NCBI GenBank assembly: GCA_035707385.1
Contig: DASSUD010000440.1
Span: forward strand, 1-43,160
Origin: Acidimicrobiales bacterium
GTDB lineage: Bacteria; Actinomycetota; Acidimicrobiia; Acidimicrobiales; VFJN01
Reading direction: 5' to 3'
Length of the DNA: 43,160 nucleotides
The notes under the pieces were generated by a model that was not told the origin of the DNA, searched no databases, and was given only the letters and a program-made list of their open reading frames with translations. Positions 10,227 through 28,621 of this stretch are shown one piece after another (position 1 is the first letter of the stretch; the number at the start of each line of letters is the position of its first letter). A program made the translations under genes and the position numbers.

Positions 10227-10243
10227 CAGCCCAGGAGCCCCGC

Positions 10244-11191
<948 letters not shown>

Positions 11192-11884: not shown

Positions 11885-12249
11885 CCCTTTGACCAGGGAT
11901 TTTAGTCCCACCGGCTGGAAGGCTGCGATCACCAAGACCAACGGACTGGCGCATATGCCCACTCCGGACTGTTCTCGTGGCAGGCCACAAGCGGTTCCGT
12001 CGGGGCCTGGCACTGTCGGTCGAGGCGCCGAAGGACCCGATGGGTCGACACGAACTGCGAGCGCCCCGCCAGCCGCGAAGCCCTGCTCTCCGCCTCCGAT
12101 GACGACATCGCGCTGCTCCGGGTGACGCCGCACGTCGACGAGGGTCGTTGATTTCGCGCTTGAGAAGGCCGAGGTCATCCGGTGGGTCGGTCTCCTCTCG
12201 TGCGCAAGCAAGACGGACGAGGGTCGGCGGCGTGCCGGGAGGCTGGCCG

Positions 12250-13822: not shown

Positions 13823-14199
13823 GCGACCTCCCCGCCGAGCTGGCGATCAGCGGTCCCGCCGCACCGCCGCGCTCGAACGGCGAGATGGTGTTCGACGCTC
13901 CGTGGGAGAGCCGCCTGTTCGGTGTCACCATGGCGCTCGTCGAGGCGGAGCGCTTCGCGTGGAGCGAGTTCCAGCCGCGGCTGATCGCCGCCGTGCGGCG
14001 CTGGGAGGCCGAGCACCCGGACGGCGAGGGCTACAGCTACTACGAACGTTGGGCCGAGGCGCTGGAGTCCTTGTTGGACGACCTCGGCGTCGTCGCCGTC
14101 GAGACGATCGACGCGCGGGCGCTTGCGCTCGCCGCCCGTCCGGCAGGGCACGATCACCACGGGCACGGACCGGGCCCCGGCGCGCACGATGGCCCGTGA
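13819..14199 (+). CDS. nitrile hydratase accessory (activator) protein
   Basis: [24 protein letters not shown]...W.EFQ..LI resembles beta-homologue NHase activators, with a His-rich tail (GHDHHGHG). A putative TTG start overlaps the alpha-subunit stop. Confidence 0.65.
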
Positions 14200-14602
14200 G
14201 CGCCGGCTCTCGGCCGTCGTCGAGGCCAGGTGGGAGGCGGACTACCGCGCCGACATCGCGGTGCGCGACTTTCAGTTCGTCGCAGACGAGCCGCCCCGGT
14301 CCGGTGGGGAGGACGCGGGAGCGATGCCGACCGAGTACCTGCTGGTGGCGCTCGCGTCGTGCTATGCGATGGCGCTCGCCCATGTGGCGCGCAGGGACGA
14401 CGTGAGGCTCGGCCCGCTGAGAGTCAGGGCCGTCGCGACATACGACGGGCCGGCGTTCAGCGCCATCGATCTCGAGGTGGTCTTCGAACAGGGCCCGCCC
14501 GATGAGGTGGAAGACCTCGTCGCCCGCGCCTCGCGGTTGTGCTACGTCTCCAACACGTTGCGGCGGGCGCCCGACCTGACCGTGACCGTGGCGCCCGCGT
14601 AG
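14189..14602 (+). CDS. OsmC/Ohr family protein
   Basis: PTEYLLVALASCYAM and ASRLCYVSNTL are the two conserved Cys motifs of the OsmC family. Overlaps the accessory gene by 11 nt. Confidence 0.75.
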   Translation: MARERRLSAVVEARWEADYRADIAVRDFQFVADEPPRSGGEDAGAMPTEYLLVALASCYAMALAHVARRDDVRLGPLRVRAVATYDGPAFSAIDLEVVFEQGPPDEVEDLVARASRLCYVSNTLRRAPDLTVTVAPA

Positions 14603-14615: not shown

Positions 14616-15104
14616 TCAGACGGTCCAGGTGTTGAGCTGGAACGCGCCGGCTCGCCACGCCGTGAGCGCCGAGTCGAGGACGTCGAGTGGGTGGAACGCC
14701 TTGACGCCGGGGATCAGGTCATCCTCCCGGAAGCCGTACAACGCGCCCATGGCGAACCGGCACGCATGGACCGTGGCGCCCTCCTTGAGGAGGGTCTTGA
14801 TCTGGTTGTTGATGGCGAGATGGCCGGGGAATGCCTCCTGCCCGACCGAGGGATAGCCGCGGGTACCCGATGCCAACAGGACACCCGGCCCATACAGCAC
14901 GATCGTGACGTCGAAGCCCTTGCGGACGAGGCGGGTCGCGGTCAGCAGGTTGACGAGCGCGACCGAGCCTTCGTAGGGCACGGTGTGGATGAAGACGAAC
15001 GCCTTTTCGCCCGGCTCGGCCTGGATGTCCTCGAACACCTTCTCCTCGGTGTCGAAAAGGGTCTCGCCTTCGTCGGGAAGCGGTACTTGCACCGTCTTTG
15101 GCAC
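14616..15104 (-). CDS. DsrE/DsrF-like family protein (possibly MSMEG_0572/Sll0783-type)
   Basis: 162 aa. FVFIHTVPYEGSVALVNLLTATRLVRKGFDVTIVLYGPGV...GATVHACRFAM resembles DsrE-like folds. The subfamily is not verifiable by eye. Confidence 0.55.
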   Translation of the reverse strand: MPKTVQVPLPDEGETLFDTEEKVFEDIQAEPGEKAFVFIHTVPYEGSVALVNLLTATRLVRKGFDVTIVLYGPGVLLASGTRGYPSVGQEAFPGHLAINNQIKTLLKEGATVHACRFAMGALYGFREDDLIPGVKAFHPLDVLDSALTAWRAGAFQLNTWTV

Positions 15105-15146: not shown

Positions 15147-15407
15147 TTACACGGCTGGGCCCAGGGGATGGCGGGCACGCGGCGTCCATGTCTTGCGATG
15201 GCTGCCGGGCATCGACTGGAGGACGAACGAACGGAAGCGCCACGGCAGCCGCCGGTAGACGGGCGCGAACACCAGGAGGAAGAACCTCCCCTTGACGCCT
15301 TCGTGGGGTCGAGGGCACTCGTGGTCATGGCGCGCCGCGACCTCCCGCTGCGCGGCCATCAAGAGGTAATGCTCGGAGTTCGTGCGGAGCCAACGGGCGA
15401 ACCTCAT
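15147..15407 (-). CDS. small hypothetical protein (86 aa)
   Basis: The ATG lies 5 nt after the upstream oxidoreductase stop. High GC3. Sits between two co-oriented genes. No motif recognised. Confidence 0.4.
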   Translation of the reverse strand: MRFARWLRTNSEHYLLMAAQREVAARHDHECPRPHEGVKGRFFLLVFAPVYRRLPWRFRSFVLQSMPGSHRKTWTPRARHPLGPAV

Positions 15408-15412: not shown

Positions 15413-16741
15413 TCAGAGGTTCGCGAGGGCGTTCTGGGCGGCGAGCGCGATCGGTTCGTTGAGCGCGCCGATCGGGGGCGAGTACACGTTCTCCATGTAG
15501 GCAAGGTCGTCGAGGGTGATGCCGGTCTTGACCGCCATGGCCAGGAAGTCCGCCCGCTCCTTGATGCCTTCCTGGCCGACCATCTGGGCGCCGATGAGCC
15601 GCAGCGTCTCCGGCTCGGCCAGCAGCTTCACCTTGAGGGTCTTGACGCCGGGGTAGTAGCGAGCGCGCGAGATGCCCTGGGCGACGCCCATCACGTGGGG
15701 GATCCCGAGTGCCTTGGCCACCGTCTCGCCGTAGGCGACGCCGCCGATCATCCAAAGCCCCGCCACCATCCCCCACGGCACGTACACCGGCTGGTACTCA
15801 CGCGTGCCCCCCCCGGCGTTGATCCCGGCCACCTTCCCCTGGGCGTACGCGTGAGAGCCCGAGAGCCCCTGCACGGGAAGGTTGCCGACGCCGAGGGGCA
15901 CCTCGACGCAGTCGCCGCACGCGAACACCGCGTCGGCGTTGGTGCGCATCCGGTTGTCGACGATGAACCCCCCGGTCGGTCCGGTCACGAGGCCGGCGGC
16001 GGTACCCAACGAGGTGTTCGGCACCTTCTTCGTGCAGACGACGGCGATGTCGGCGGGCAGGTCGCCGGCAGACGTCTGGACGGCGTTGATCCTGGGCCCG
16101 CCGAGGAACGCCTCGAGCCTGACGCCGTAGTGCATCTTGACGCCCAGCTCGGTCCAGGACTCCTCGACCGGCTGGGCGATGTCGGGGTCCGCCAGGTCGC
16201 TGAGAGCCCAGGGGCGGTGATCGATGACGTGGGTCTCGATCCCCCGATGGGCGAGCGCGGTGACCATCTCCAGCCCCAGCGGGGTGGCCTCGACCACGAC
16301 GGCCACCTTGACCTCGTCGAGGACCTTGTCCCACTCCATGGCCCGGCGGATGTTCTTGACGTAATAGAGGCCCTCGAGGTCGGTGCCGGGCACCCCCGGG
16401 TCGGCGTAGTCGAACCCCGTGGCGACGATCAGGCGGTCGTAACCGACGTCTGCCTGCCCGTCGACTCCCACCGTGCCGGCCTTCAGGTCGAGGGCTGCAA
16501 CCGGGGTCTCGTAGCGGATGTCGATGCCCTGCTCGACATAGGCCTCCTTGGTGGCGAGGAACAGAGCCTCGAAGCTCGCGATCTCCTTGCCGTGGACGTA
16601 GGGGATGCCGCAGGGGCTGTACGCGGCGTCCTCGTACTCCGTGAAGACGATGACCTCACCGTCGGGCTGAGCGCCCTTGAACGCACCGGCGGCGCCGATC
16701 CCTCCCGCGCCGCCGCCGATCACGACGAGCCTCGGTGCCAT
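15413..16741 (-). CDS. FAD-dependent pyridine nucleotide-disulfide oxidoreductase (CoA-disulfide reductase / NADH oxidase-like, single-Cys class)
   Basis: N-terminal VVIGGGAGGIGAAG FAD fold, redox Cys in AAYSPCGIPY, a second dinucleotide fold VVVEATPLGLE, and CGDC near the C-terminus. The start is at MAPRLVV, preceded by gaggggg. Confidence 0.85.
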   Translation of the reverse strand: MAPRLVVIGGGAGGIGAAGAFKGAQPDGEVIVFTEYEDAAYSPCGIPYVHGKEIASFEALFLATKEAYVEQGIDIRYETPVAALDLKAGTVGVDGQADVGYDRLIVATGFDYADPGVPGTDLEGLYYVKNIRRAMEWDKVLDEVKVAVVVEATPLGLEMVTALAHRGIETHVIDHRPWALSDLADPDIAQPVEESWTELGVKMHYGVRLEAFLGGPRINAVQTSAGDLPADIAVVCTKKVPNTSLGTAAGLVTGPTGGFIVDNRMRTNADAVFACGDCVEVPLGVGNLPVQGLSGSHAYAQGKVAGINAGGGTREYQPVYVPWGMVAGLWMIGGVAYGETVAKALGIPHVMGVAQGISRARYYPGVKTLKVKLLAEPETLRLIGAQMVGQEGIKERADFLAMAVKTGITLDDLAYMENVYSPPIGALNEPIALAAQNALANL

Positions 16742-16805: not shown

Positions 16806-16839
16806 GAACACGTGCGTCGTACTTTGCTACGAAGTGTTC
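16806..16839. promoter_or_regulatory. nested inverted repeat abutting the XRE-cupin start codon
   Basis: GAACACgtgcgTCGTActttgcTACGAaGTGTTC: outer arms 6 bp, inner arms 5 bp. Located in the divergent region between the oxidoreductase operon and the regulator. Confidence 0.3.
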
Positions 16840-16840: not shown

Positions 16841-17479
16841 ATGACCGTACCGAAGCGTTCGGAGACCGCAACGACCGAGCCGGACGCCGACGAAAGCGGT
16901 CCCGGGGCAAGTGGGCTCCACGAGATCGTGAGCTCCATCGGGCCGAAACTGCGAGAGCTGCGGCTCCAGCGGGGGATGTCGCTCCAGCAGCTCGCCGCCC
17001 AGTCGGACGTGTCCGCCGCCGCCATCCACAAGATCGAGCGCGGGGGCATGGTGCCGACGATCACCACGCTCCTGAAGATCGCCGTGGCGTTCAACCGGCC
17101 GGTGTCGTACTTCGTCGAGGAGCAGATCGGCGAGAATCGGCCCGTCGCCCACATCCGGAGCGACGACCGTGGCCCGATCTTCACGGCCCACAGCGGCATC
17201 GAGCTGGCCGGCATCTCCGGTCCCTACGGCCGCTTCTTCCTCGCCGGCGCGATCGCCACCGTGCAGCCGGGAGCCAGCAGTGGCGACAAGCCGATGGAGC
17301 ACCCCGGTGAGGAGCTGATCCTCGTGCTCGACGGCACGTTCGAGGTCGACGTCGACGGCCAGCACTTCGCCTTGGCGGAAGGGGACTCCCTCCACTTCCG
17401 CACCGATCGGCCCCACCGCTGGCACAACGCCGGTACGTCGCCGATCAAGGCGGTGTGGCTGGCGCTGCGCCCGTTCTGA
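16841..17479 (+). CDS. XRE-family transcriptional regulator with C-terminal cupin domain
   Basis: HTH LRELRLQRGMSLQQLAAQSDVSAAAIHKIERG, then cupin-like HPGEELILVLDGTFEVDVDG...GDSLHF. Confidence 0.8.
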   Translation: MTVPKRSETATTEPDADESGPGASGLHEIVSSIGPKLRELRLQRGMSLQQLAAQSDVSAAAIHKIERGGMVPTITTLLKIAVAFNRPVSYFVEEQIGENRPVAHIRSDDRGPIFTAHSGIELAGISGPYGRFFLAGAIATVQPGASSGDKPMEHPGEELILVLDGTFEVDVDGQHFALAEGDSLHFRTDRPHRWHNAGTSPIKAVWLALRPF

Positions 17480-17500: not shown

Positions 17501-18928
17501 TCAACGACCTGACACGGCGCGGTCGAGCGCCATCACCGCGTCGACGAAGCACGTCAGAGGCGCCTCCGCGACGCCGGCGCCGACCTGCCCGGCACCGGCC
17601 GACGCGTGGAGGACGCCGGTGGTGATCTTGGGCGTGATGCCCAGCTCGGCGACACGGCGCGCGTCAACGCCGAGGGGCGTGCCCCGGAGGTCGAGGAGGG
17701 GGATGCGCAGGCGGGTGCTGCGACCGGCGCAGACGAGGTCGAGCTCCTCGGTGGTCGCGCGCGCGTCGGCCATCGTCCCGCCGACGAAGGCGGCCACGGC
17801 CGGCGAGCCGGCGGCGGCCGCGGCGCCGAGGCCAACGAGCTCGAGCACCGCGCTGTCGCCGACGTCGGGCGCGGCGGCTTCGGGGCCGTAGTCCGCGTAG
17901 TACAGCGCCTGGCCGACGGCGGGTGCGGGCGCCAGATGCCAGCTCGGCGACCCGGCGAGGCCCACGGCGAACTCCGTGCCGTTGCGCGTCATGGTGGTGA
18001 CGATCGACGAGTGGGGGACGTCCATCGCCCAGCCGGTCAACGCCCGGGCCGCCGCCATCGCGACGTTCAGGAAGAAGAGGTGGTTGCCGGCCAGGAAGCG
18101 AGCGAGGTCGGTACGCCGCGGATCGTCGAGCCCCGCCAGATGGGGGAGCAGGTCGCGCAGCATCAGGTTGGTGCTCCCCTGCAGACGGATGTGCACGTCA
18201 TCGCCCATGTGCAGGCCCTGTGCCGCGATGTTCATGACGTCGAGGGGCCCGTGCGAGCGGACGGCGTCGTCGAGGAGCGGTCCGGCGACCGCAGCCAGGA
18301 ATCGCAGCCGGTCGATCGCGGCGCGCGTGTCGCGGCCGAACCATGCGGTGTCGCCCGGTCCCTGGTTCAGCGGCGCGAACGCACGGTTACCGCCGGCCGC
18401 GTTCTCGACGATCCAGACCGGCTGCGACGGCCCGAAGGCCGTGACCATGGGCACGCACGCGTCATGCCGGTTCGCCGGCTCGAGCCCGACCCGGCCGCCC
18501 GCGAGCAGCCGGTCGGCACTATCCGTCTCGTCGGCCCAGCCCTCGGCGACCACGGCGGCGCGCATCGAGCGGCGCAGGGGATCGATGGCGTCGGCATAGT
18601 CGATGGGTGGCCCGCAGTGGAGAAGTGTCGTGCCCTCGAAACCGGGCACGACATCTGCGGCGGTGCGGACGCCGACGGCGCGGGGGGCGCCGCTGTCGAG
18701 GCGCCTGAGGACCTCGGCGTTGGCCGCGTCCACCGCGGCGGACATCGGCCCGTAGAGGCGAGCCAGGGCAGCGACGACGTCGGGATCGCCCCCGCCGGGG
18801 ATCCGCCAGTCGACGTCGACCACCTCGAAGCCCTGCCGGGCGACCGCGTCCGCGAACAGCGACAGCCCGATGTTGACGACCCGTGCCCTCTCGGGCAGCG
18901 ACGGGGCGTCGTCGCCGCCGGTGGTCAC
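17501..18928 (-). CDS. DUF1116 family protein (YlbE-like)
   Basis: 475 aa. VNIGLSLFADAV..QG..VV.VDWRIPGGGD, LLHCGPPI, MVTAFGPSQPVWIVENAAGGN and AQGLHMGDDVH resemble the E. coli YlbE family. Confidence 0.75.
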   Translation of the reverse strand: MTTGGDDAPSLPERARVVNIGLSLFADAVARQGFEVVDVDWRIPGGGDPDVVAALARLYGPMSAAVDAANAEVLRRLDSGAPRAVGVRTAADVVPGFEGTTLLHCGPPIDYADAIDPLRRSMRAAVVAEGWADETDSADRLLAGGRVGLEPANRHDACVPMVTAFGPSQPVWIVENAAGGNRAFAPLNQGPGDTAWFGRDTRAAIDRLRFLAAVAGPLLDDAVRSHGPLDVMNIAAQGLHMGDDVHIRLQGSTNLMLRDLLPHLAGLDDPRRTDLARFLAGNHLFFLNVAMAAARALTGWAMDVPHSSIVTTMTRNGTEFAVGLAGSPSWHLAPAPAVGQALYYADYGPEAAAPDVGDSAVLELVGLGAAAAAGSPAVAAFVGGTMADARATTEELDLVCAGRSTRLRIPLLDLRGTPLGVDARRVAELGITPKITTGVLHASAGAGQVGAGVAEAPLTCFVDAVMALDRAVSGR

Positions 18929-20412
18929 TCCGATGGCTCCTCGATCACACGCCGGGCCTCGGCGACGAGGCTGTGCTCGGCGCGATCGATCGTGTCGAGG
19001 CGGTCTCGCGCCGCTCCCGCCAACGCGTCCGTGTCGGCGGCGGTGTCGGCGAGCATCGCCTCCATCGGTTCCGGCGCCGCGCCGCCCAACGCCACGCGCG
19101 TGGCGACGATCGCCGCCGGATCGAGGGCGTCGGCGAGCGTCGCGGCATCGATGGCGAGGGGCCGGCCGAGCTGCTCGACGGCGATCTCGTCGAGCAGCGT
19201 CGGGTTGAGGTCGCCGGCGGTGCCGCCGTCCGCGGCGAGACGACGCACCGCGCTGCCGACGACCTGGTATGCGGTCCGGTAGTCGACTCCGCAGGCCACC
19301 ATCAGCTGCTCGGCGACGTCGGTCGCCTGGCTGAAGCCGGTCGCGAGCGCCTCGCGTAGCCGGGCCTCGTTCATGGTCAGGGTGGACACCACACCGGCCG
19401 TGAGCTCGGTCATGCGCCGGGCGTGGTCGAGGGCGCCGGGGATCTCACCGTAGGCGAAGATCAGATTGTCGCTCCGGGCGGAGGGGCTCTTCTGCACCGC
19501 CAGCACTCCGGCGACGTGCCCGATCAGCACGCCCGTCGTGCCCCGGATCACCGACAGCGCGTACGGGTTGCGCTTCTGCGGCATCAGCACGCTGGCGCGG
19601 GTGTACTCCTCGGCGAGCTCGGCGTAGTCGAACTCGGAGCTGGCCCAGATCTCCAGGTCCTCGGCGAGCGAGGTCTGCGTGAGGGCCAGGCTCGCGAGGG
19701 TCGATGCCAGCTGGACCAGGCCGTCGACCTGCCACATGGCGTCGCGGGTGTTGACGATCACCGACGCGAAGCCGAGCCGGGCGGCGACGGCGCCGCGGTC
19801 GCCCTGGAGCCGGGTGCCGTTGACGCAACCGGCGCCGGCAGGGCTGGCGTTGAGCCAGTCGAACACCTCGAGGAGCCGGTGGCCGTCGCGGATCACGGGA
19901 TAGGCGAACGACAGCAGGTAGTGCCCGACGGTCGAGGGTTGGGCGTGCTGGAGGTAGGTCTGGTCGGCGAACAGCGTGTCCCGGTACTGGCCTGCCCGGT
20001 CCGTGAGCGCCCGCGCCAACGCCGTCGCCGCGAGCACCAACTCCGCGGTGCGGCGCCGGAGGTGCAACCGGAAGGCCAGGCGGGTCGCCTCGCGCCGGGG
20101 ACGACCGGCGTGCAGCCATCCGGCCGTCGAGCCGATCTGCGCGGCGAACGCGCGCTCGCGGGAGTTGTACGGCTCGCCGTCCCGGGGGTCGTAGCCGATC
20201 GAGTCCATCGACGCGTCCAGGATCACCCGGAGCAGGGCCACCGCAGCGGGGCGGGGGATGATCCCGCGTTCGAGGAGGTCGAGCACATGGGCGACGTCGG
20301 CCTGGTTGAGCCCATCGTGGAGCGTGGCGGCTCCCCGTGACTCGTAGCCGAACCCGGCGCCGACGAGCTCCGGCGCCGGGCCCGGGGTGCTGGCGCCCCC
20401 CGGGCGGGTCAT
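18925..20412 (-). CDS. aspartase/fumarase-superfamily lyase, argininosuccinate-lyase-like paralogue
   Basis: 495 aa. TYLQHAQPSTVGH and the signature loop ASVLMPQKRNPYA (canonical is GSSxMPQKKNP). The start ATG overlaps the upstream stop (ATGA at 20409-20412). Confidence 0.85.
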   Translation of the reverse strand: MTRPGGASTPGPAPELVGAGFGYESRGAATLHDGLNQADVAHVLDLLERGIIPRPAAVALLRVILDASMDSIGYDPRDGEPYNSRERAFAAQIGSTAGWLHAGRPRREATRLAFRLHLRRRTAELVLAATALARALTDRAGQYRDTLFADQTYLQHAQPSTVGHYLLSFAYPVIRDGHRLLEVFDWLNASPAGAGCVNGTRLQGDRGAVAARLGFASVIVNTRDAMWQVDGLVQLASTLASLALTQTSLAEDLEIWASSEFDYAELAEEYTRASVLMPQKRNPYALSVIRGTTGVLIGHVAGVLAVQKSPSARSDNLIFAYGEIPGALDHARRMTELTAGVVSTLTMNEARLREALATGFSQATDVAEQLMVACGVDYRTAYQVVGSAVRRLAADGGTAGDLNPTLLDEIAVEQLGRPLAIDAATLADALDPAAIVATRVALGGAAPEPMEAMLADTAADTDALAGAARDRLDTIDRAEHSLVAEARRVIEEPSE

Positions 20413-21356
20413 CCGTGCCCGATCCCCATGGCCTCGCCGACGCAGCCCAGCCAGCCGCCGGTGTGCCACAGGACGAGCGGCCCGTCGAGCGACCCGAGGA
20501 CGGCGACCGCGCGGGCGACATACGTCGTGTCCGCCATGATGCCCTCGGTACGGAGGGCGAGGCGGGCTGCGTCGCACGTCGTCCGGTCGGCCCGGCCGAA
20601 GCCGGCGCCCAGGCCATCGAGCAGGCGCAGGCGACCGATGTCCGGACCACCAGCGCCCAGGGCGGTGGCCGCTTCGCAGGCCAGGCGGATCACTTCGCGG
20701 CGGGTCTCGGCCAGTGGGCGGCTCACGGCCACGCCGACGAGGGTGCCGGGGACGCCGGAGCCCGCCCACCCGGCGAGCAGCCCGGCGACCGTGCCGCCGG
20801 AGCCGACCGCCACCACCACGTGGGCCGGCCGGAACGTCAGCTGGGCGGCGAGCTCCTCTGCCGCGAGCGCGTACGCCGTCGCACCCACCCCGGAGGCGGC
20901 CCCGCGGGGCACGATGTACGGGTGGTGCCCGCGCCGGCGGAGCCGGTCGGCGGCCGCAGCCGCATGCTCGGGTGTGGACGCGCGACCGGGATCGCCGGTG
21001 AAGCGGACTTGGGCACCGAACATCCGCATCAGCGCGAGGTTCGGGTGGGGCGCCGCCGGCTCGCTGCCGTGCAGGACGAGGGTGCAGCGGAGCCCGGCCA
21101 CCGCGGCCGCGGCCGCCAGTGCCGAGCACAGGTTGGAGGCCGGCCCGCCGCAGCCCACGACGTGGTCGCACCGTTGGTCGATCGCCTCCGCCAGGAGCAC
21201 CTCCAGGACGCGCACCTTGTTGCCACCGAGCGCGAAGCCCGTCATGTCGTCGCGCTTGATCCAGACCTCGCGATCGAGCGCCGCGCTCAGCCGCGGGGCG
21301 TGAACGAGCGGCGTGGGGAGCACGGCCAGCGGCAAGCGCGTCGGCGGCGTCAGCAC
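20409..21356 (-). CDS. fold-type II PLP-dependent enzyme, D-cysteine desulfhydrase / ACC deaminase family
   Basis: 315 aa. IKRDDMTGFALGGNKVRVLE (PLP lysine motif), and a Gly-rich VVAVGSGGTVAGL phosphate-binding loop. Confidence 0.85.
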   Translation of the reverse strand: MLTPPTRLPLAVLPTPLVHAPRLSAALDREVWIKRDDMTGFALGGNKVRVLEVLLAEAIDQRCDHVVGCGGPASNLCSALAAAAAVAGLRCTLVLHGSEPAAPHPNLALMRMFGAQVRFTGDPGRASTPEHAAAAADRLRRRGHHPYIVPRGAASGVGATAYALAAEELAAQLTFRPAHVVVAVGSGGTVAGLLAGWAGSGVPGTLVGVAVSRPLAETRREVIRLACEAATALGAGGPDIGRLRLLDGLGAGFGRADRTTCDAARLALRTEGIMADTTYVARAVAVLGSLDGPLVLWHTGGWLGCVGEAMGIGHG

Positions 21357-22693
21357 GAGTCCTCCCCGAGGCGGCCGAGGACGGAGCGCACCGCGGCGGT
21401 GTCACCGGGAGCGATCGGGTCCGCGACCGCCGACTCCGCCTCGGCCCGGGTCATCAGGCCGGCTGCCTCGAGCGCGTCGGCCGCAGACCGACGGTCGCGC
21501 CCCGCTGCGCCGAGGGCGTCCCGGAGCGCAGCCTGGGCCCGGTGCTTGCCCAGGCGGCCGGAGAGCATGCCGAGGATCCGCTCGGACGCCAGCAGGCCCT
21601 CTGCCGCACCCACGTTCGCGCTCATCCGGTCGGCGTCGACTTCGAGCCCCTCGACACAGGTGATGGCGAGGCGCAGCGAGGCCGAGGTCAGGAGGCACAC
21701 CTCCGGGAGCGCCACCCACTCGGCCTTCCAGGCACGGCCGTCGCGCTCGTGGATCTGGACCTGGCCCTCCAGCAGCACCAGCGCGTGGGCGCGGGTGAGG
21801 CGGGCCAACGTGTCGAGGTGCTCGCTCGACTCCGGGTTCCGCTTGTGCGGCATCATGATGCTGCCGACGACGTCGACGGGGACCGCCTCCCGCAGCTCGC
21901 CGATCTCGGGTCGCTGCAGTTCCATCACCTCGTTGCCGACGCGTGCGAGCGTCCCGGTGATCCCGGTCATCACCGCGGCGAACTCGGAGATCCGGTCGCG
22001 GCTGGTGAACCACGCGATGCCCGGGTCCGCGAGGCCGAGCCGCTCCGCGAACCGGGCCCGCAGCGCTGGCCCGACCTCGCCGTAGAACCCGAGCGTGCCG
22101 ACCGCCCCGCCGAGCTGCACGGTCGACCAGCGGGGCCGGCCCTCGTGCAGGCGTTCCCGGTGACGCCCGAGCTCGTCGGCCCAGGTGGCGAGCTTGAACG
22201 CGAAGGAGATCGGTGCGCCGGGCTGGGCGTGGGTCCGGCCGGGCATCACGGTGCGCTCATGCCGGGCTGCGAGGCTGGTGACCGCCCCGACGAGCCGGCG
22301 CACGTCCCGGTCGAGGAGGTCACCGACGTCGCGCATCGTCAGAGCGAACCAGGTGTCGGTCAGATCCTGCACCGTTGCGCCGTAGTACACGTGCTCGGCG
22401 ACGTCGTCCGGCAGGATCCTCTGGAGCGCCCGGATCAGGCCCAGCGTGGAGTGCGCGGTGCGGCGGGTCTCCTCGGCCAGGTAGTCGAGGTCGAGGTTGT
22501 CGACCCGCGCCAGCTCGGCGATCGTCTCGGCCGACGACGGGGGAACCACGGCGAGGTCGGCTTGCGCCGCCGCCAACGCGACCAGGATGTCGAGCCACTG
22601 CTGCCAGCGCGCCCGTTCGTCGAACAGGGCGTGCGTCTCGTCGGTCGCCCACAGGTGCGCGTAGGCGGCGCTGTCGGTCAGGCGGGCACCCAT
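21350..22693 (-). CDS. aspartase/fumarase-superfamily lyase, adenylosuccinate lyase / carboxymuconate cycloisomerase-like paralogue
   Basis: 447 aa. GATVQDLTDT, MPGRTHAQPGAPISF, and the signature loop VGSIMMPHKRNPESSE (canonical is GSSAMPHKRNP). An alternative ATG lies at 22705. Confidence 0.85.
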   Translation of the reverse strand: MGARLTDSAAYAHLWATDETHALFDERARWQQWLDILVALAAAQADLAVVPPSSAETIAELARVDNLDLDYLAEETRRTAHSTLGLIRALQRILPDDVAEHVYYGATVQDLTDTWFALTMRDVGDLLDRDVRRLVGAVTSLAARHERTVMPGRTHAQPGAPISFAFKLATWADELGRHRERLHEGRPRWSTVQLGGAVGTLGFYGEVGPALRARFAERLGLADPGIAWFTSRDRISEFAAVMTGITGTLARVGNEVMELQRPEIGELREAVPVDVVGSIMMPHKRNPESSEHLDTLARLTRAHALVLLEGQVQIHERDGRAWKAEWVALPEVCLLTSASLRLAITCVEGLEVDADRMSANVGAAEGLLASERILGMLSGRLGKHRAQAALRDALGAAGRDRRSAADALEAAGLMTRAEAESAVADPIAPGDTAAVRSVLGRLGEDSC

Positions 22694-23547
22694 GCCGGGT
22701 CGCATCGACGTGCCAGCGTGGCGAGGGCCTGCCTGACCTGCTCGAGGCTCGCACCCCAGGGAACCACGGCGACGTCCCCGTCGATCTCGGTGTGGTCTTC
22801 GAGGAGGCAGCACTTGGTGAGCAGGGGCCCGGGTCCCGACGCCAGGGCCCTCGGGCAGGTATCGGGACCGGAGGCGCCGCGCCCGTAGAACCAGTGATGG
22901 AGCTGGCGGGACCGGGCGCACCCGAGCAGGGTCCAGTCACGGTCGGCGGGGCGCTCGTCGAGGTAGTGCACCTCCCGGTCCTCGAGCCGGATGCCCGCCC
23001 CGCGACACGGCAGCAACACCACGGCGGCATCCCCGGCGAGCGATTCCAGCTCGACCAGCTCGGGTTCGAGCACCATCGGTGGCAGGTCCTCGGCGAGGTC
23101 GAGGACCCGCTGCGCCTGGTCCAGCAGCTTGGGGGGATGCGGCGGCACCACCTCGTACACCCGGACCCGCACCGGGTCGGGATCGAGCAGGAAGCTCACG
23201 TGCGAGTACCGGCCCTCGACGACGACGGCTCGCGCCCCGGGTTGCCCGATGGCGACCTTCGCCAGTTGCGAGGGCACGCCCGTGTCGATGTCGGGAATGC
23301 GCAGGTATGCGGTCTCGGCCGGTAGCGCCAGCACCTCCACTGACGCAGCCGGCGAGAAGAGCGGTTCCGGGTCGGCAGGCTCGACGCCAACGAGGGCGGT
23401 GGCGTCGCCGTTGCGCACGACGATGTAGCGGGTGCGCCGGTAGCACTCCCGTCCCAGGAAGTGTTCGATCAGGCGGTCGGCCGTCAGCGGAACCTCGACC
23501 CGCGCGACCGAGACCTCCCGGTAGGCGCGTGGCCTCCGGTTCGTCAT
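22678..23547 (-). CDS. hypothetical protein (289 aa), operon-embedded orphan
   Basis: The ATG overlaps the ComA-like stop (ATGA at 23544-23547), and the 3' end overlaps the next start. Protein-like composition. No motif recognised. Confidence 0.6.
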   Translation of the reverse strand: MTNRRPRAYREVSVARVEVPLTADRLIEHFLGRECYRRTRYIVVRNGDATALVGVEPADPEPLFSPAASVEVLALPAETAYLRIPDIDTGVPSQLAKVAIGQPGARAVVVEGRYSHVSFLLDPDPVRVRVYEVVPPHPPKLLDQAQRVLDLAEDLPPMVLEPELVELESLAGDAAVVLLPCRGAGIRLEDREVHYLDERPADRDWTLLGCARSRQLHHWFYGRGASGPDTCPRALASGPGPLLTKCCLLEDHTEIDGDVAVVPWGASLEQVRQALATLARRCDPAWVPA

Positions 23548-24344
23548 GCGCTCGGAACTCCGCCCGCCTGCGTCCCGGACGCGACGGCGTGGAGGGCGAG
23601 CGTCGTGTCGGCCCGGAGGCCGAGCCGGAGCGCCTCCAGCCCCATCGCCTCGAGCGGCGCCACATTCGCCAGGTTGACGTCGGGGCCGATGCGGCGGATC
23701 AGCCACGCCTGCTGGTGCCGGTGGGGCGCCTCGAAGATGAGGTGGTGAGCGCCGACCCCGTCGACGAGGGCATCGACGACCTCGCCCCGGACCGAGCCGT
23801 CGGCCGCGTAGAGGCCGACCACGCCGCTCTCCCGTCCTTCGGTGAGCACTGCGGTGGCCCCGGCCTCCAGATCGGCACGCGCGAGCTCGACCCAGGTCCC
23901 CGGCGTGAGCACGGACGTCGGGTCCTTCCTCCCCACTTCGGAGACGACGGCGAACATGGAGGCCGCCCTGCGGATGAGGCCGGCCTTGGCGTCCTCTCCC
24001 AGGAGGCCGAGTCCATCGCTCACCTCGACCTGCGTGAACCCGCACTCGGCCGCCCAGTCGAGGCACTCCTCGGCGCAGCCCTGGAGGGCGGCGAGCTCGA
24101 GCAGCGTGCCTCCCGGGCAGCCGATGACGTCATGGCGCCGAAGGAGGCTGAGCTTGGCGTCGAGCGTGGCGTCGAGATAGGCGCTGCCCCAGCCGAACTT
24201 CCACACGTCGATGTGTGCGGCGGCCGAGTCCAGGATGGCGCGCACGTCCGGCAGGGGCAGGCCGGCGTCGATCACACAGGACAAGCCCTGGCGGCGAGGC
24301 TTGCGGGACCGGTCGGGCAGGCGTAGGAATGCCGCCGCAGGCAT
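23544..24344 (-). CDS. (2R)-phospho-3-sulfolactate synthase (ComA) family protein
   Basis: 266 aa. AFLRLPDRSRKPRRQGLSCVIDAGLPL...IDVWKFGWGSAYL...VEVSDG matches the ComA family N-terminal and barrel motifs. Confidence 0.8.
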   Translation of the reverse strand: MPAAAFLRLPDRSRKPRRQGLSCVIDAGLPLPDVRAILDSAAAHIDVWKFGWGSAYLDATLDAKLSLLRRHDVIGCPGGTLLELAALQGCAEECLDWAAECGFTQVEVSDGLGLLGEDAKAGLIRRAASMFAVVSEVGRKDPTSVLTPGTWVELARADLEAGATAVLTEGRESGVVGLYAADGSVRGEVVDALVDGVGAHHLIFEAPHRHQQAWLIRRIGPDVNLANVAPLEAMGLEALRLGLRADTTLALHAVASGTQAGGVPSA

Positions 24345-24372: not shown

Positions 24373-25320
24373 ATGGTGCAGGCCCTTGCCGAGCTAGTGG
24401 AGGCGCTGCGCTCGTCGTCGGGCTGGCAGGCCAAGGCTGACATCGCCGTCGTGCGGGCCGTGCTCGGGGAGAGCGACTGGGTGCGCGGCCCCGGGGACGA
24501 CGGGGCGGCGGTACGGGTGGGCGGCGAAGAGGTGATCGCTTGCGGGGAGGCGATCCTGCCGGCGTTCGTCGAACACGATCCGTACGGCGCCGGGGTGGCG
24601 GCGGTGCTCACCAACGTGAACGACGTGGCCGCCATGGGCGCAGTCCCTCTCGCCATCGTCGACACCGTCGTGGGCCCGCACGAGACCTGCCGCGCCGTGC
24701 TGGAGGGGATGCATTTCGCGTCTGCGCTCTACGACGTGCCGGTCGTGGGCGGTCATCTGACGAAGAGCGCTGATCGCGTCGCGCTGTCGGCGTTCGCCCT
24801 CGGACGCTGCCCTGGCCGTCCCCTGTCGGCGACACGCGTCGCCCCCGGGCAGACGTTGGCGCTCGTCGTGTGCCTCGAGGGCAGGATGCGGCGCGACTTC
24901 CCGTTCTTCCCGTCGTTCGACGAGCGCGGGAGCAGGCTCGCCGGCGACGTGCGCCTGCTCGCGGACCTCGCGGCCGGCGGAGTCGTCGAGGCGGCCAAGG
25001 ACGTGAGCATGGCCGGGCTCTTCGGGTCGATGGCGATGTTGCTGGAGGCCACCCGCTGCGGGGCATCGATCCCGGTCGCGGCAGTCCCGGTACCCCCCGG
25101 GATCGACTTCGGCGCCTGGTCGCTGTGCTTCCCGTGCTTCGCGTTCCTGGTCACGATGGCGCCCGAGAACGAGGCCCGTTGCCGCGACGCCGTGGAGCGA
25201 CGCGGGCTGGCCTACGCGACGCTGGCCACCGTCGACGGGTCGGGCGTGCTCGAGCTGGTCGACGGAGGGGACGCGGCGATGCTCGTGGACCTGAACGCCG
25301 ACGGGATCACCGGGCTGTAG
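24373..25320 (+). CDS. AIR synthase-related protein (sll0787-like, PurM/ThiL/HypE superfamily)
   Basis: 315 aa. GDDGAAV...ACGEAI...DPYGAGVAAVLTNVNDVAAMGA...VVGGH pattern. GAGGA RBS 9 nt upstream of the ATG. Confidence 0.75.
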   Translation: MVQALAELVEALRSSSGWQAKADIAVVRAVLGESDWVRGPGDDGAAVRVGGEEVIACGEAILPAFVEHDPYGAGVAAVLTNVNDVAAMGAVPLAIVDTVVGPHETCRAVLEGMHFASALYDVPVVGGHLTKSADRVALSAFALGRCPGRPLSATRVAPGQTLALVVCLEGRMRRDFPFFPSFDERGSRLAGDVRLLADLAAGGVVEAAKDVSMAGLFGSMAMLLEATRCGASIPVAAVPVPPGIDFGAWSLCFPCFAFLVTMAPENEARCRDAVERRGLAYATLATVDGSGVLELVDGGDAAMLVDLNADGITGL

Positions 25321-25783
25321 CGGTCAGGTCGATCGCCATCGGGACGTGGGGCACGCCGACGTAGATCTCCCTCTCCCCGGATACCGACCAGCCCAGGCGT
25401 TCGAAGTAGGGGACGTTGCGGGGCTGGATGTGCGCCGTCATCAGGCGTCCGCCCCGGTTCGCTGCCGTCGCGACCGCGAACCGTACGAGCGGCGCGCCGA
25501 GGCCCCGGCCCCGAGTGCCGAGGAGGACGGCGAGCCGATCGCCCTGCCAGTGGCCGGCATCATCGAGAGGGTAGAGGCGCACCGCGCCGCCGGCGACGCC
25601 GTCGCGGAACCCGAGCACCCTGATCGTGGCCGCCTCGTCGTCCCGGCCATCTCGATCCGAGCCCTGGAACAGGCGCTGCTCCCGGACGAAGACCGCCTCG
25701 CGGATCCGGTGGTGCTCGGCCAGCGTCCAGGCGTCGTCGGCCACGCGGCACTCGACGGTGGTGCGGTGCAGGACGTCAGCCAC
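25307..25783 (-). CDS. GNAT N-acetyltransferase, MSMEG_0567/Sll0786-like
   Basis: 158 aa. HHRIREAVFVREQRLF, GAVRLYPL, GDRLAVL...RGRGLGAPLVRFAV (acetyl-CoA loop). The GTG start overlaps the radical SAM stop by 8 nt. Confidence 0.8.
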   Translation of the reverse strand: MADVLHRTTVECRVADDAWTLAEHHRIREAVFVREQRLFQGSDRDGRDDEAATIRVLGFRDGVAGGAVRLYPLDDAGHWQGDRLAVLLGTRGRGLGAPLVRFAVATAANRGGRLMTAHIQPRNVPYFERLGWSVSGEREIYVGVPHVPMAIDLTATAR

Positions 25784-26954
25784 GCGCCGCGACGGGCTTG
25801 GGCCCGATCTGGAGGCGGTCCTGGACGGCGGCCATCGGCGAGCACGCCTGGCAGCGCGAGCACCCCGCCTTGGCCGTCTCCGCACCGAGGCCGCGCTCGG
25901 TCAGGTAGGGCGTCACGCGGCGCACGAGGCGCTCGACGTAGTCGTGCGCCGGCGGTGACCACTCGGCCATGAGGCTGCCGGCCACCGGCCGCAGCGGCAC
26001 CACGAACGGGTACACGCCCATGTCGGCCGCCCGCCGGCACCCTTCCACCGTCAGCTCCGGGTCCTCGCCCATGCCGAGGATCACGTAGGTGGTGACCTGC
26101 CCCTCGCCGAAGCGCGGCACGGCGCGCTCCCAGGTACGGAAGTAACCCTCGATGCCCGTGCGGGCCTTCGCGGGCGCCACGCGGGCGAGCACGGCGGGAT
26201 CGAACGACTCGACGTGGATCCCGACGGTGTCGACGCCGAGGTCGGCCACCCGGTCGATCACGTCGAGATCCTCGGGCGGTTCGAACTGCGTCTCGACGGG
26301 CAGCCCGCTCGCCTGCTTCACCGCCGCGGCGCACTGGGCGACGTACAGCGCGCCACGGTCGGGGGCGCGGGTGCTGCCGGTCGTGAGGGTCACGTCGACC
26401 GCGCCGTCGAGGTCGCGGGCGGCGACGGCCACCTCGGCGAGCTGCGCCGGGGTCTTCTTCGCCGTGGTGCGACCGGCATCCAGCGAGACCCCGATACCGC
26501 AGAAGGCGCACTGGTCGTCGTTGCCCCAGTAGGCGCACGTCTGGAGCACCGTGCTCGCCAGCGAGTCCAGGTGCAGCAGGGCGATCTTCCAGTAGGGGAT
26601 CCCGTCGGCGGTGGTGAGGTCGTAGCAGCGCGGCCGGGTTTGCGAGCGGGCGGGCGCAACCCACTGTCCGGCCTCGTAGATGCCGACCTCGCTGCCGTCG
26701 GTCCGCAGTTCGAAGGGCGACGAGGCCGTCCGGGCCGGGTCGGTGTCGAGCGTGACCGCGTAGTCGTCGACCCAGACCATGCCGACGTCGGACGGGCCGG
26801 CGCCCCCGGCCCGGCCCTCGGTCTGCACCTCCGTCCGCAATCCGTGGGCCTGCAAACGGAGGATGAGTTCGGCGGTGTGTCGCTCCAACGCTGCCTCCAC
26901 TCCCGTGGGGGACGTGTCGGATATTACGACGACCACGGCGACCGCGCCCACCAT
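25776..26954 (-). CDS. radical SAM protein, MSMEG_0568-like
   Basis: 392 aa from MVGAV. Cys triad CAYWGNDDQCAFCG, GRAGGAGPSD near the N-terminus, and a C-terminal CSRCQAC. Genomic pairing with the GNAT. The exact start is uncertain. Confidence 0.8.
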   Translation of the reverse strand: MVGAVAVVVVISDTSPTGVEAALERHTAELILRLQAHGLRTEVQTEGRAGGAGPSDVGMVWVDDYAVTLDTDPARTASSPFELRTDGSEVGIYEAGQWVAPARSQTRPRCYDLTTADGIPYWKIALLHLDSLASTVLQTCAYWGNDDQCAFCGIGVSLDAGRTTAKKTPAQLAEVAVAARDLDGAVDVTLTTGSTRAPDRGALYVAQCAAAVKQASGLPVETQFEPPEDLDVIDRVADLGVDTVGIHVESFDPAVLARVAPAKARTGIEGYFRTWERAVPRFGEGQVTTYVILGMGEDPELTVEGCRRAADMGVYPFVVPLRPVAGSLMAEWSPPAHDYVERLVRRVTPYLTERGLGAETAKAGCSRCQACSPMAAVQDRLQIGPKPVAARG

Positions 26955-26964: not shown

Positions 26965-27582
26965 TCAGGAAACGTCCGCCTGGAGCTCCTCCGCGACCCG
27001 TTCCCATTCCGCGGCGGTGCCGGCCGTGTGGACCGCTGCACCCGGGTCGGTCCGCAGTTCGCCGGTCGTGAGATCGACTCGCACCGCGGTCACGAGCAGG
27101 GCGGGCGCCCCGGTGGCCTGATCGCCACCCACCTCGGTCAGGATGGCCCAGCCCGACCCGACGTGCACTCTCAGCTCCGGCACGCGCGGGCCGAGCGATT
27201 CGGCGTGGACATCGGTCCACCCTGCACCCGCTGCCCGGGCTCGGCCGATCGCGGCCAGCCTCGCCAGCCGCCGCTCCTCTCCTGCCAGTTCGCGATCCCG
27301 TGCCGCGGCTGCGGATCCGAAGATGTCGTCCGGGTCGAGGCCCTGCGCACTCGTGCCCGTCGCATCGCACGCCTCCGCCACTTGCTCGACCGCCCGCGCT
27401 TGGCAGGCGAGGAGGTCAGCGGCCGTGGTGGTCACCTCCCGCAACTGCTCGCAGGTCGCGGCGACCAGCACCAGGGCCCGCTGGTAGCCGTCGACGTTGG
27501 TCATCGCCAGGGGGTACAGGCGTGCCTCGGCGGCCCGCCACGACTGGCGGGCGCGCACGACGGCATCGTCGCTCATCGACAC
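26965..27582 (-). CDS. hypothetical protein (205 aa), first gene of the radical SAM/GNAT operon
   Basis: High GC3, 10-nt gap to the radical SAM start, no motif recognised. An alternative ATG lies at 27576. Confidence 0.55.
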   Translation of the reverse strand: MSMSDDAVVRARQSWRAAEARLYPLAMTNVDGYQRALVLVAATCEQLREVTTTAADLLACQARAVEQVAEACDATGTSAQGLDPDDIFGSAAAARDRELAGEERRLARLAAIGRARAAGAGWTDVHAESLGPRVPELRVHVGSGWAILTEVGGDQATGAPALLVTAVRVDLTTGELRTDPGAAVHTAGTAAEWERVAEELQADVS

Positions 27583-27655: not shown

Positions 27656-28621
27656 GTGGGTGGTCGTGCCCTCATCGCCCTGGGAGGCAACGCGTTGTCC
27701 GGCGCCGACCAGATGGGCACCTACGCAGAGCAGCGCGACAACGCACGCGCCATGGCCACGTCGATCGGCGAGCTTATCGACGCCGGTTGGCACGTCGCAG
27801 TGGTGCATGGCAACGGCCCCCAGGTCGGAGCCCTCGAGGTGCAGCAGGAGGCCGCGGCAACCCTCGTGCCCCCGCAACCTCTGTTCTCCCTCTCCGCCAT
27901 GACGCAGGGCCACCTCGGCAGCCTCATCGCGCTCGCTCTCCACGAGCGCCTCGGCCGGCGTCACAAGGTTGTGAGCGTGGTGACCCACGTGGTCGTCCAC
28001 GTTGACGACCCGGCGTTCGCCGAGCCGTCGAAGCCGATCGGGCCGTTCTACGCCGCGGGCGACGCCCGCCGGTTGTCGGCGGAGAGGGGCTGGACGATGG
28101 CCGAGGACGCGGGCCGGGGATACCGGCGCGTGGTGCCCTCGCCGGAGCCCCTCGGTATCCTCGAGGCCGACACGATCCGTCGGATCTTCGATGCCGGCCT
28201 CGTCGTCATCGCCTGCGGCGGAGGCGGTGTGCCGGTGACGCTGAGCGTCGACGGCTACGTGGGAGTCGACGCGGTCGTCGACAAGGACCTCGCCGCCCAA
28301 CGGCTGGCGTCCACGCTGGGAATCGACGTGCTCGCGCTGGTGACCAGCGTGCCGGCGGTCCAGCTCGGCCACGGCACGCCCCGGCAGCACGACCTTCACG
28401 AGCTGAACGTCGACGACGCCGAGCGCTACCTCGCCGACGGTCAGTTCGCGGCGGGGAGCATGGCACCGAAGATCGCCGCTGCCATCCGCTTCATCCGCGA
28501 CGGCGGCGACGCCGTGGCCATCACCACCCCCGCACTGCTGGCCTCGACCATGACTGGGTCGGACGGGCGACCCGCGGGAACCCTGGTCACCGCCACGCCG
28601 AGTCGTCAGGTCAGTCCCTGA
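27656..28621 (+). CDS. carbamate kinase
   Basis: IALGGNAL...VVHGNGPQVG...VIACGGGGVP...VDAVVDKDLA are carbamate kinase (amino acid kinase family) signatures. Confidence 0.85.
   Translation: MGGRALIALGGNALSGADQMGTYAEQRDNARAMATSIGELIDAGWHVAVVHGNGPQVGALEVQQEAAATLVPPQPLFSLSAMTQGHLGSLIALALHERLGRRHKVVSVVTHVVVHVDDPAFAEPSKPIGPFYAAGDARRLSAERGWTMAEDAGRGYRRVVPSPEPLGILEADTIRRIFDAGLVVIACGGGGVPVTLSVDGYVGVDAVVDKDLAAQRLASTLGIDVLALVTSVPAVQLGHGTPRQHDLHELNVDDAERYLADGQFAAGSMAPKIAAAIRFIRDGGDAVAITTPALLASTMTGSDGRPAGTLVTATPSRQVSP

Follow-up and report, generated by a model that had tools for sequence, protein, structure and literature searches.

A predicted coenzyme M biosynthesis operon joined to a Nit1C/gpr-type gene island in an Acidimicrobiales bacterium

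The 43,160-bp contig DASSUD010000440.1, from the metagenome-assembled genome of a soil actinobacterium, an Acidimicrobiales bacterium (assembly GCA_035707385.1), was analysed whole and is referred to below as the window. It has a G+C content of about 73% and carries six consecutive minus-strand genes at positions 17501-24344, all of which were backed by GC3 frame analysis. As judged from sequence, these genes form an operon made up of a complete five-gene set for the biosynthesis of coenzyme M (CoM, 2-mercaptoethanesulfonate) in the order xcbB-xcbA-xcbD-xcbE-xcbC and of one extra gene, a homologue of AllG (DUF1116). The operon lies among genes related to Nit1C, the cluster of cyanide-assimilating pseudomonads and Synechocystis, and to gpr, its GlnR-dependent counterpart in M. 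smegmatis, whose function has been called 'obscure' (PMC7815647, PMC11049912, PMC6039565). The operon as such adds one more member to a known pathway; what is new is its conserved joining with a Nit1C-type island.

The first gene, xcbB (23544-24344, 266 aa), encodes a ComA-type phosphosulfolactate synthase, and its start at the ATG at 24344 agrees with that of its homologues. It is followed by xcbA (22678-23547, 289 aa), encoding a protein of the [2Fe-2S] thioaldehyde reductase family, xcbD (21350-22693, 447 aa), encoding a cysteine-adding lyase of the aspartase/fumarase superfamily, xcbE (20409-21356, 315 aa), encoding a pyridoxal phosphate (PLP) enzyme of the D-cysteine desulfhydrase/1-aminocyclopropane-1-carboxylate deaminase family, and xcbC (18925-20412, 495 aa), encoding an ArgH-like phosphate-eliminating lyase. 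The last gene, allG (17501-18928, 475 aa), is translationally coupled to xcbC. A preliminary description of this DNA had claimed six coupled genes with an overlap at each of the five junctions, and this could be read directly in the sequence: ATGA at 23544-23547 (xcbB/xcbA), 16 nt at 22678-22693 (xcbA/xcbD), GTGCTGA at 21350-21356 (xcbD/xcbE), ATGA at 20409-20412 (xcbE/xcbC) and GTGA at 18925-18928 (xcbC/allG). The same start/stop overlaps are kept in related loci. It had been argued that they indicate stoichiometric co-expression. The overlaps do mark an operon; no special significance can be given to them beyond that, since such overlaps are routine for high-GC operons.

The gene products were identified by their Pfam and NCBIfam profile scores; the cut-offs for XcbC, XcbD and XcbE are the strict, 'exception'-level ones of NCBI. 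Reference xcb clusters of Xanthobacter Py2 and Nocardioides JS614 were taken from PLSDB. XcbB matched PF02679 with 253 bits and scored 228 bits with the arch_ComA model (cut-off 280), as expected of a bacterial copy. It aligned over its full length with the ComA/YitD structures 1QWG and 1U83, was found to keep the core blocks KFGWG, GGTLxE, SEVGxK, EGRESG and IFEAP, and was 39% identical to XcbB of Py2 and 45% identical to that of JS614. The 289-aa protein, which had been regarded as an orphan, turned out to belong to the XcbA family: it scored 329 bits with NF052538 (cut-off 150), matched DUF7714, was 44% identical to the Py2 protein and 49% identical to the JS614 protein, and shares with these and the Methylocystis protein five cysteines that are invariant in the alignment. 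Consequently, of the two genes thought to be additional to the CoM set, only allG is an extra one.

For the other three enzymes, the top NCBIfam matches were XcbD (562 bits, cut-off 600), with purB next at 222 bits; XcbE (236 bits, cut-off 450), with CuyA next at 192 bits and DcyD at 165-178 bits; and XcbC (424 bits, cut-off 575), with argH next at 249 bits. The respective identities to the Py2 and JS614 proteins were 43% and 50% for XcbD, 40% and 43% for XcbE, and 40% and 46% for XcbC. The loop GSI(M/T)MPHK(R/V)NPE of XcbD is common to the window, Py2, JS614 and Methylocystis, and the loop RAS(V/K)xxPQKRNPYAL of XcbC is common to the window, the characterised XcbC of Py2, JS614 and Methylocystis. 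Both are unlike the loop signature of housekeeping ArgH and PurB, which is GSSxMPxKxN. Overall, the Xcb proteins of the window were 39-44% identical to those of Py2, which have been characterised biochemically, and 43-50% identical to those of JS614, and the latter two sets were 37-47% identical to each other; therefore, the window proteins are as close to the reference enzymes, whose part in CoM synthesis is proven or implied by physiology, as the reference enzymes are to one another. Pfam and NCBIfam thus bore out the earlier family calls (ComA, two Lyase_1 proteins, a PALP enzyme and DUF1116) and also the earlier proposal that these are the families of the bacterial CoM route, since the four proteins named there had XcbB, XcbC, XcbD and XcbE as top matches and not ArgH, PurB or DcyD. 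The two lyases do not side with orthodox ArgH and PurB, and the ComA core is kept.

By orthology to the Xanthobacter pathway (PMC9457059), XcbB would add sulfite to phosphoenolpyruvate, XcbC would eliminate phosphate to give sulfoacrylate, XcbD would add cysteine, and the PLP-dependent XcbE would release sulfoethanethioaldehyde. The last compound would then be reduced to CoM by XcbA, which in Xanthobacter is a [2Fe-2S] protein catalysing this very reaction (PMC9457059). The five homologues in the window thus probably make CoM or a closely similar compound. The order of the genes had been described as different from that of the known pathway. This holds with respect to Xanthobacter; the order B-A-D-E-C is identical to that of the ethene oxidiser Nocardioides JS614. 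Besides the five protein families, the identities of 39-50%, the loop variants and the XcbA cysteines, the window operon shares its tight coupling with the xcb clusters of Py2 and JS614.

To examine conservation, the XcbA alignment was scanned over one genome per species (185,579 species), and 492 places were found to encode a relative. The best 80 of these 492 (50-88% identity) were fetched, and the genes around them were identified with reference proteins as tblastn queries; gene counts out of 44 refer to the loci with full 10-kb flanks among these best 80. In nearly all of the 80 loci, the xcb genes form one supercluster with Nit1C and AllF/AllG genes. XcbA is kept in 80/80 loci. Among the full-flank loci, XcbB, XcbA, XcbD and XcbC were each found in 44/44 and XcbE in 39/44. 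The carbamoyl-handling proteins were represented by AllG (42/44), AllF (33-34/44), AllH (20/44) and carbamate kinase (35/44), and the proteins of Nit1C type by an AIR-synthase-like protein (39/44), a radical SAM enzyme (36/44), a GNAT acetyltransferase (36/44), a GT4 glycosyltransferase (35/44) and the Sll0783 protein (34/44). A flavoprotein resembling coenzyme A disulfide reductase (CoADR-like) was present in 38/44, a small 86-aa protein in 36/44, an OsmC-like protein in 37/44 and a nitrile hydratase in 17-20/44. No other proteins of the cluster are as conserved as the flavoprotein and Sll0783 (70-86% identity). The hosts belong to Acidimicrobiales, Nocardioidaceae, Pseudonocardiales, Streptosporangiales, Streptomyces, Micromonosporales, Dormibacterota and Chloroflexota, and cultured carriers include Pseudonocardia aurantiaca JCM 11838, Actinomycetospora rhizophila CGMCC 4.7134, Planosporangium flavigriseum TBRC 198, Streptomyces chiangmaiensis JCM 16577 and Methylocystis iwaonis SD4. 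Membership persists while gene order is shuffled among lineages and phyla, as is usual for functionally linked genes.

Some individual loci deserve mention. In five loci of Acidimicrobiales (L021, L022, L025, L035 and L039), xcbD is followed directly by xcbC with gaps of 6-180 bp, and xcbE is absent from the cluster while xcbA is kept; this subclade either has a substitute PLP enzyme or follows a different pathway. Two separate contigs (L046 and L065) of one Nocardioidaceae metagenome-assembled genome, SMAG_U16309, each carry an xcb-allG set, and there may be two copies per genome or a mixed bin. The extra genes of one Chloroflexia locus were also inspected; they encode an ABC ATPase, a methyltransferase and a response regulator and were uninformative.

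Because bacterial xcb genes were previously known only from alkene users (PMC11507031), and because the gene order equals that of JS614, where the xcb set adjoins etnE and alkene monooxygenase genes, it was considered whether the operon merely supplies CoM to an alkene or epoxide metabolism whose genes lie in another part of the genome. In both Py2 and JS614, the xcb genes lie less than 10 kb from the gene for the transferase. In contrast, the window lacks the epoxyalkane:CoM transferase, alkene monooxygenase, hydroxypropyl-CoM dehydrogenase and 2-KPCC that accompany those sets. The preliminary description had seen no alkene monooxygenase or epoxyalkane:CoM transferase in the window, and it was right: tblastn for EaCoMT/EtnE, alkene monooxygenase and 2-KPCC gave no match on the 43-kb contig or in any of the 80 loci (0/44 with full flanks). 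The conserved partners are instead Nit1C, AllF/AllG and carbamate kinase genes. Moreover, the window set is chromosomal and flanked by tRNA sequence and has allG joined onto it, whereas the Py2 and JS614 sets are located on a catabolic megaplasmid. The XcbA of the window also falls in a separate clade: in a neighbour-joining tree (no bootstrap, arbitrary root), the two alkene-type proteins lie outside one clade holding all Nit1C-linked copies. Taken together, these differences make a role in alkene metabolism very unlikely.

The gene coupled to xcbC was studied together with its presumed functional partners. AllG scored 208 bits with PF06545, matched the PDB entry 3CLQ, and showed 54-55% identity to its Methylocystis counterpart and 38% to enterobacterial DUF1116 proteins. 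It directly follows xcbC, adjacent and on the same strand, in 43/80 loci. On the plus strand of the window lie a carbamate kinase gene (27656-28621, 321 aa; arcC 326 bits, PRK12352 289 bits with a cut-off of 266) and an allF/FdrA-like gene (28633-30168, 511 aa; NF004760 FdrA 406 bits with a cut-off of 433) whose product has a Ligase_CoA domain and is a relative of the succinyl-CoA synthetase alpha subunit. AllF, AllG and AllH together with a carbamate kinase constitute the oxamic transcarbamylase system of E. coli, described in 2024, which yields carbamoyl phosphate and then NH3 and ATP; AllH is part of the purified enzyme (PMC11326118). As in E. coli allFGHK, homologues of FdrA/AllF, DUF1116/AllG and carbamate kinase share one locus in the window. 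The window differs in that the genes are divided between two operons, AllH and allantoin genes are absent, AllG is distant from the enterobacterial copies, and the C-terminal piece of FdrA is found on AllG. Thus, residues 8-58 of AllG correspond to positions 504-554 of the FdrA model, which has 555 positions and of which the AllF of the window spans only positions 8-495. It appears that the C-terminal 50 or so residues of E. coli-type FdrA sit on the N-terminus of AllG, which is a gene-fission hint that AllF and AllG are in contact. No genes of allantoin or oxalurate catabolism were annotated in the window or the related loci, and oxalurate is an unlikely substrate of AllF/AllG here.

Four other neighbours of the operon exceeded the curated cut-offs of Nit1C/gpr families. 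These are a MSMEG_0567/Sll0786-family GNAT acetyltransferase (25307-25783, minus strand; TIGR04045, 100 bits vs 68), a MSMEG_0568-family radical SAM enzyme (25776-26900, minus strand, with a start at 26888 or 26900; TIGR04043, 355 bits vs 304), a MSMEG_0565-family GT4 glycosyltransferase (30165-31319, plus strand, 384 aa; TIGR04047, 361 bits vs 260) and a DsrE-like protein of the MSMEG_0572/Sll0783 (NitB) family (14616-15104, minus strand; TIGR04044, 206 bits vs 110) with an invariant cysteine in the motif ACRF. Divergent from xcbB and separated from it by a 28-bp spacer is an AIR-synthase-like gene (24373-25320, plus strand, 315 aa); its product carries AIRS and AIRS_C domains and has the sll0787 family as its top match, although below the cut-off (TIGR04049, 246 bits vs 321). 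A conserved 203-aa protein (26965-27576, minus strand) without a Pfam or NCBIfam match occupies the slot that the nitrilase has in canonical Nit1C, upstream of the radical SAM gene. It was detected in 23/44 loci; its AlphaFold2 model (pLDDT 94) consists of a helical bundle and a beta sheet, and Foldseek against the PDB gave no match with E <0.1.

On the other side of the operon, a CoADR-like flavoprotein (15413-16741, minus strand, 442 aa) with the single-cysteine motif YSPCGIPY scored 230 bits with TIGR03385, which is under the cut-off. It was 60% identical to the Methylocystis copy, 33% identical to a CoADR-like protein of JS614 and 24% identical to 2-KPCC; with the last value, its assignment as 2-KPCC was rejected. 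Its gene is always followed by that of a basic conserved 86-aa protein (15147-15407, minus strand) with the motifs WLRxNSEHYLL and MPGSHR and no family match. Further genes encode an OsmC-like protein (14189-14602, plus strand; PF02566, 62 bits) and a cobalt-type nitrile hydratase (12564-14199, plus strand; beta subunit 12564-13226, alpha subunit 13223-13822, accessory protein 13819-14199). The alpha subunit contains the motif CTLCSC, and the scores were 292 bits vs 250 with TIGR01323 and 196 bits vs 152 with TIGR03888. A thiocyanate hydrolase was considered in its place and rejected, since that model gave 187 bits vs 291, whereas the nitrile hydratase alpha model gave 292 vs 250. Profile matches were obtained for all the neighbours listed in the preliminary description (GNAT, GT4, radical SAM and disulfide reductase); AllF, carbamate kinase, the AIR-synthase-like gene and nitrile hydratase had been overlooked there.

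On the left of these genes lies a tRNA-Val (TAC) gene at 11811-11886 on the plus strand (ARAGORN; Rfam, 72.6 bits), and on the right a 42-nt direct copy of its 3' end with 2 mismatches at 31596-31637, also on the plus strand, so that the tRNA island proposed earlier is indeed present. The 19.7-kb interval holds exactly the set from nitrile hydratase (12564) through glycosyltransferase (31319) and, as far as the sequence tells, is a classical footprint of tRNA-gene integration. No integrase domain was found in the open reading frames near either boundary. The island structure is not generalised to relatives, since no att-like tRNA-Val copies were found within their fetched flanks, and tRNA scans of 52 related loci gave scattered calls only, which are probably spurious. 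A third copy of the tRNA-Val 3' end, with 1 mismatch, is located at 42924-42967 and, together with the copy at 31596-31637, brackets a second segment (31638-42967) that encodes a 2227-aa DUF6603 protein (32500-39183) and an overlapping 1299-aa open reading frame without a family match (38871-42770). This segment, which likewise has no integrase, looks like a second insertion placed in tandem at that tRNA gene.

The island was then compared with canonical Nit1C clusters. Common to both are Sll0783, the radical SAM enzyme, the GNAT and the glycosyltransferase, all over cut-off, and a pair consisting of a flavoprotein and a small protein; the AIRS-like protein of the window has the sll0787 family as its top match below the cut-off. 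In the window, however, the flavoprotein pair is not the MSMEG_0569/0570 pair, which is replaced by the CoADR-like flavoprotein and an unrelated small protein. Neither the window nor any of the 80 related loci has a Nit6803-type nitrilase; the 203-aa protein is in its slot, and about 45% of loci have a nitrile hydratase. The additions to Nit1C are xcbBADEC, allF/allG (and allH), carbamate kinase and OsmC. Conversely, the canonical Nit1C clusters of Agrobacterium and Methylorubrum carry the MSMEG_0569/0570 pair and are without xcb, AllF/AllG and the CoADR-like protein, and the Nit1C radical SAM family was found on 514 plasmids, whereas XcbA was found on 6. Therefore, xcb, AllF/AllG and the CoADR-like reductase can be regarded as a co-varying add-on to the Nit1C core.

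This comparison bears on the proposal of the preliminary description that the island makes a more elaborate sulfonated thiol or amine, for example a glycosylated and acetylated thiol. On this reading, GT4, GNAT, the radical SAM enzyme and the AIRS-like protein would decorate an Xcb-derived sulfonate into a compound resembling mycothiol or bacillithiol. The GT4 protein is distantly similar to MshA (107 bits) and BshA (62 bits), the island has a GNAT together with a disulfide reductase, like mycothiol systems, and NCBI labels these Nit1C families as 'biosynthetic process'. However, all four decorating families occur in canonical Nit1C without xcb, so that their substrate cannot generally be a product of the CoM pathway. 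In addition, CoM has no site at which a sugar could be attached with the thiol left free, and XcbA, which catalyses the final step to free CoM, is never lost among the 80 loci. Thus, the part of the earlier proposal that the genes make CoM is well supported by orthology, whereas the glycosylated, acetylated thiol is doubtful, as these Nit1C families occur without xcb on hundreds of plasmids.

The association of xcb with Nit1C was also found in an alphaproteobacterial methanotroph. On a plasmid of Methylocystis iwaonis (NZ_CP143315, at about 180-200 kb), xcbBADEC adjoins a canonical Nit1C cluster with a Nit6803-type nitrilase. The plasmid shares with the window xcbBADEC, Nit1C genes, AllF-like and AllG proteins and the trio of CoADR-like, small and Sll0783 proteins (41-60% identity). 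It differs in keeping the nitrilase and the Pnap_2097 gene and in having a 640-aa long form of AllF; neither nitrile hydratase nor carbamate kinase was in view. The genes cydAB for a cytochrome bd oxidase were noted a few kb from the Nit1C and xcb genes of this plasmid (locus L008, 9406-11841). Oxidases of the bd type are cyanide-insensitive, and the proximity of cydAB would fit a cyanide-related role.

Nit1C and gpr have been tied to the assimilation of cyanide, to starvation for nitrogen and to the redox state (PMC7815647, PMC6039565). Considering this together with the conserved partners of xcb, we favour, at somewhat better than even odds, the reading that the operon encodes a complete CoM pathway that is the biosynthetic arm of a CoM-equipped Nit1C/gpr island, in which CoM would serve as the thiol of a nitrogen-salvage and redox system and not in alkene or epoxide metabolism. 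We infer the CoM product and the later steps from what was observed, namely the gene identities, their coupling, the island boundaries, the synteny and co-occurrence, and the lack of alkene genes nearby.

A more specific scheme, which is put forward tentatively, leads from a nitrile through S-carbamoyl-CoM to carbamoyl phosphate, with CoM acting as a small-molecule thiol carrier in carbon-nitrogen salvage and redox. The CoADR-like flavoprotein, its small partner and the DsrE-like Sll0783 would keep CoM reduced or handle its disulfide or persulfide, and OsmC would join them on the thiol/disulfide side. Such an arrangement would agree with the phenotypes that have been reported for gpr and Sll0783, which concern peroxide resistance and NADPH. 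A cyano compound, S-cyano or other, would be hydrated by nitrile hydratase, or by nitrilase in Methylocystis. The carbamoyl group so formed, possibly in S-carbamoyl-CoM, would be phosphorolysed by AllF/AllG (plus AllH); carbamate kinase would then convert carbamoyl phosphate to NH3, CO2 and ATP. An exchange between S-carbamoyl-CoM and carbamoyl phosphate would fit precedents, since succinyl-CoA synthetase phosphorolyses an acyl-thiol and the E. coli paralogue a carbamoyl-nitrogen bond; it would also account for the translational coupling of allG to xcbC. In JS614, a CoADR-like single-cysteine flavoprotein gene divergent from xcbB was observed at 9666-11033 of the pNOCA01 locus (L009), its product being the one that is 33% identical to that of the window; this gene belongs to the ethene-degradation cluster, and bacterial CoM may in general have reductases of the CoADR-like kind as partners.

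CoM could also act simply as a low-molecular-weight antioxidant of nitrogen-starved cells, with the CoADR-like protein as its disulfide reductase and OsmC as a peroxidase, while nitrile hydratase, AllF/AllG and carbamate kinase would be co-regulated and chemically independent. In M. smegmatis, nitrogen starvation induces gpr more than 500-fold, and the cluster makes the cells resistant to peroxide and increases their NADPH/NADP ratio (PMC6039565). The single-cysteine motif of the flavoprotein, the frequency of the flavoprotein and OsmC genes among the relatives, and the strong conservation of the flavoprotein and Sll0783 are all consistent with such a function. On the other hand, the coupling of allG to xcbC and its presence in nearly all full-flank loci suggest a direct link between AllF/AllG and the thiol, and Actinomycetota normally have mycothiol already. 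This explanation is considered possible and about as likely as the S-carbamoyl-CoM scheme; the decorated thiol is less likely than either, and the alkene role is unlikely.

The carbamoyl-handling genes could instead work in the anabolic direction, in a manner resembling HypE and HypF. HypE, a member of the AIRS superfamily, dehydrates a thiocarbamate to a thiocyanate. By analogy, carbamate kinase would make carbamoyl phosphate, AllF/AllG would carbamoylate the thiol of CoM, and the AIRS-like protein would use ATP to form CoM-thiocyanate, a cyanide donor for the radical SAM, GNAT and GT4 enzymes, with nitrile hydratase in a recycling or detoxifying role. A carbamoyl-handling module and a thiol pathway do share one island, and the AIR-synthase-like gene is paired divergently with xcbB; its product lacks the C-terminal carrier cysteine of HypE, so that an external thiol would be needed, and belongs to the superfamily that includes HypE, although the HypE model itself gave merely 22 bits. 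However, arcC-type carbamate kinases and AllFGH are catabolic where studied (PMC11326118), canonical Nit1C has the AIRS-like enzyme without AllF/AllG, carbamate kinase or xcb, and the nitrile hydratase of the same island would undo the product. Such cyanation is therefore quite improbable.

Several points weigh against the favoured reading of a CoM-equipped nitrogen-salvage and redox island or against its more specific form. XcbC, XcbD and XcbE all score under the strict NCBI cut-offs (424/575, 562/600 and 236/450), so that identical substrates are not guaranteed, and xcbE is truly missing from the cluster in 5/44 loci. Core Nit1C genes occur without CoM genes in hundreds of other clusters. 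Nitrile hydratase is found in less than half of the loci, and AllH is absent from the window, where tblastn gave no match with E <0.1 and no remnant was seen either, whereas it was found in 20 of the 44 relatives. The GlnR box GTNAC-N6-GNAAC has 0 matches in the window vs 0.58 expected, which is a weak negative for GlnR control, and no riboswitch was found in the window with Rfam at a permissive E-value, the tRNA being the sole match. The search for etnE covered the window contig, which is one part of this genome. Finally, the attachment of a carbamoyl or cyano group to CoM is purely inferred.

In 2024, CoM biosynthesis genes were still described as known only from methanogens and aerobic alkene users, and their presence was taken as evidence of epoxide metabolism (PMC11507031). 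That rule is broken by the complete xcb sets, which at least 80 loci of the collection with one genome per species have in another, conserved context. For these organisms, annotation pipelines or ecological inference equating xcb or comA with alkene degradation would go wrong. With the same combination present in dozens of soil species, CoM probably has a second, undescribed job outside alkene degradation; in the searchable literature, no paper was found that connects xcb or CoM with Nit1C, with nitrile hydratase or carbamate kinase, or with DUF1116. For about 20 years, Nit1C/gpr has been without a biochemical explanation (PMC7815647, PMC6039565), and testable hypotheses follow from a variant that has its own thiol cofactor along with a thiol-disulfide reductase and a module for carbamoyl phosphate and ATP. 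It is a speculative extension that CoM is made by many soil Actinomycetota, Dormibacterota and Chloroflexota and some methanotrophs and carries cyano and carbamoyl groups on its thiol, so that cyanide or nitriles would be converted through S-carbamoyl-CoM and carbamoyl phosphate to NH3 and ATP. If true, such a route would reveal the role of Nit1C/gpr clusters.

Regulation of the island was also considered. A PuuR-like regulator gene (16841-17479, plus strand) encodes a protein with HTH_3 and Cupin_2 domains (PuuR, 76 bits). An operator common to the three divergent promoters was sought and rejected, as their similarity was limited to TAnnnT -10-like boxes, and a distinct repeat was present in the spacer between the regulator and flavoprotein genes alone. 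This inverted repeat, TTCGTAGCAAAGTACGA(A/C), is located at 16816-16833, is the sole match in the window (0 expected by chance) and occurs in the same spacer in ten related loci. Judging from its position and conservation, it is probably the operator of the HTH-cupin regulator.

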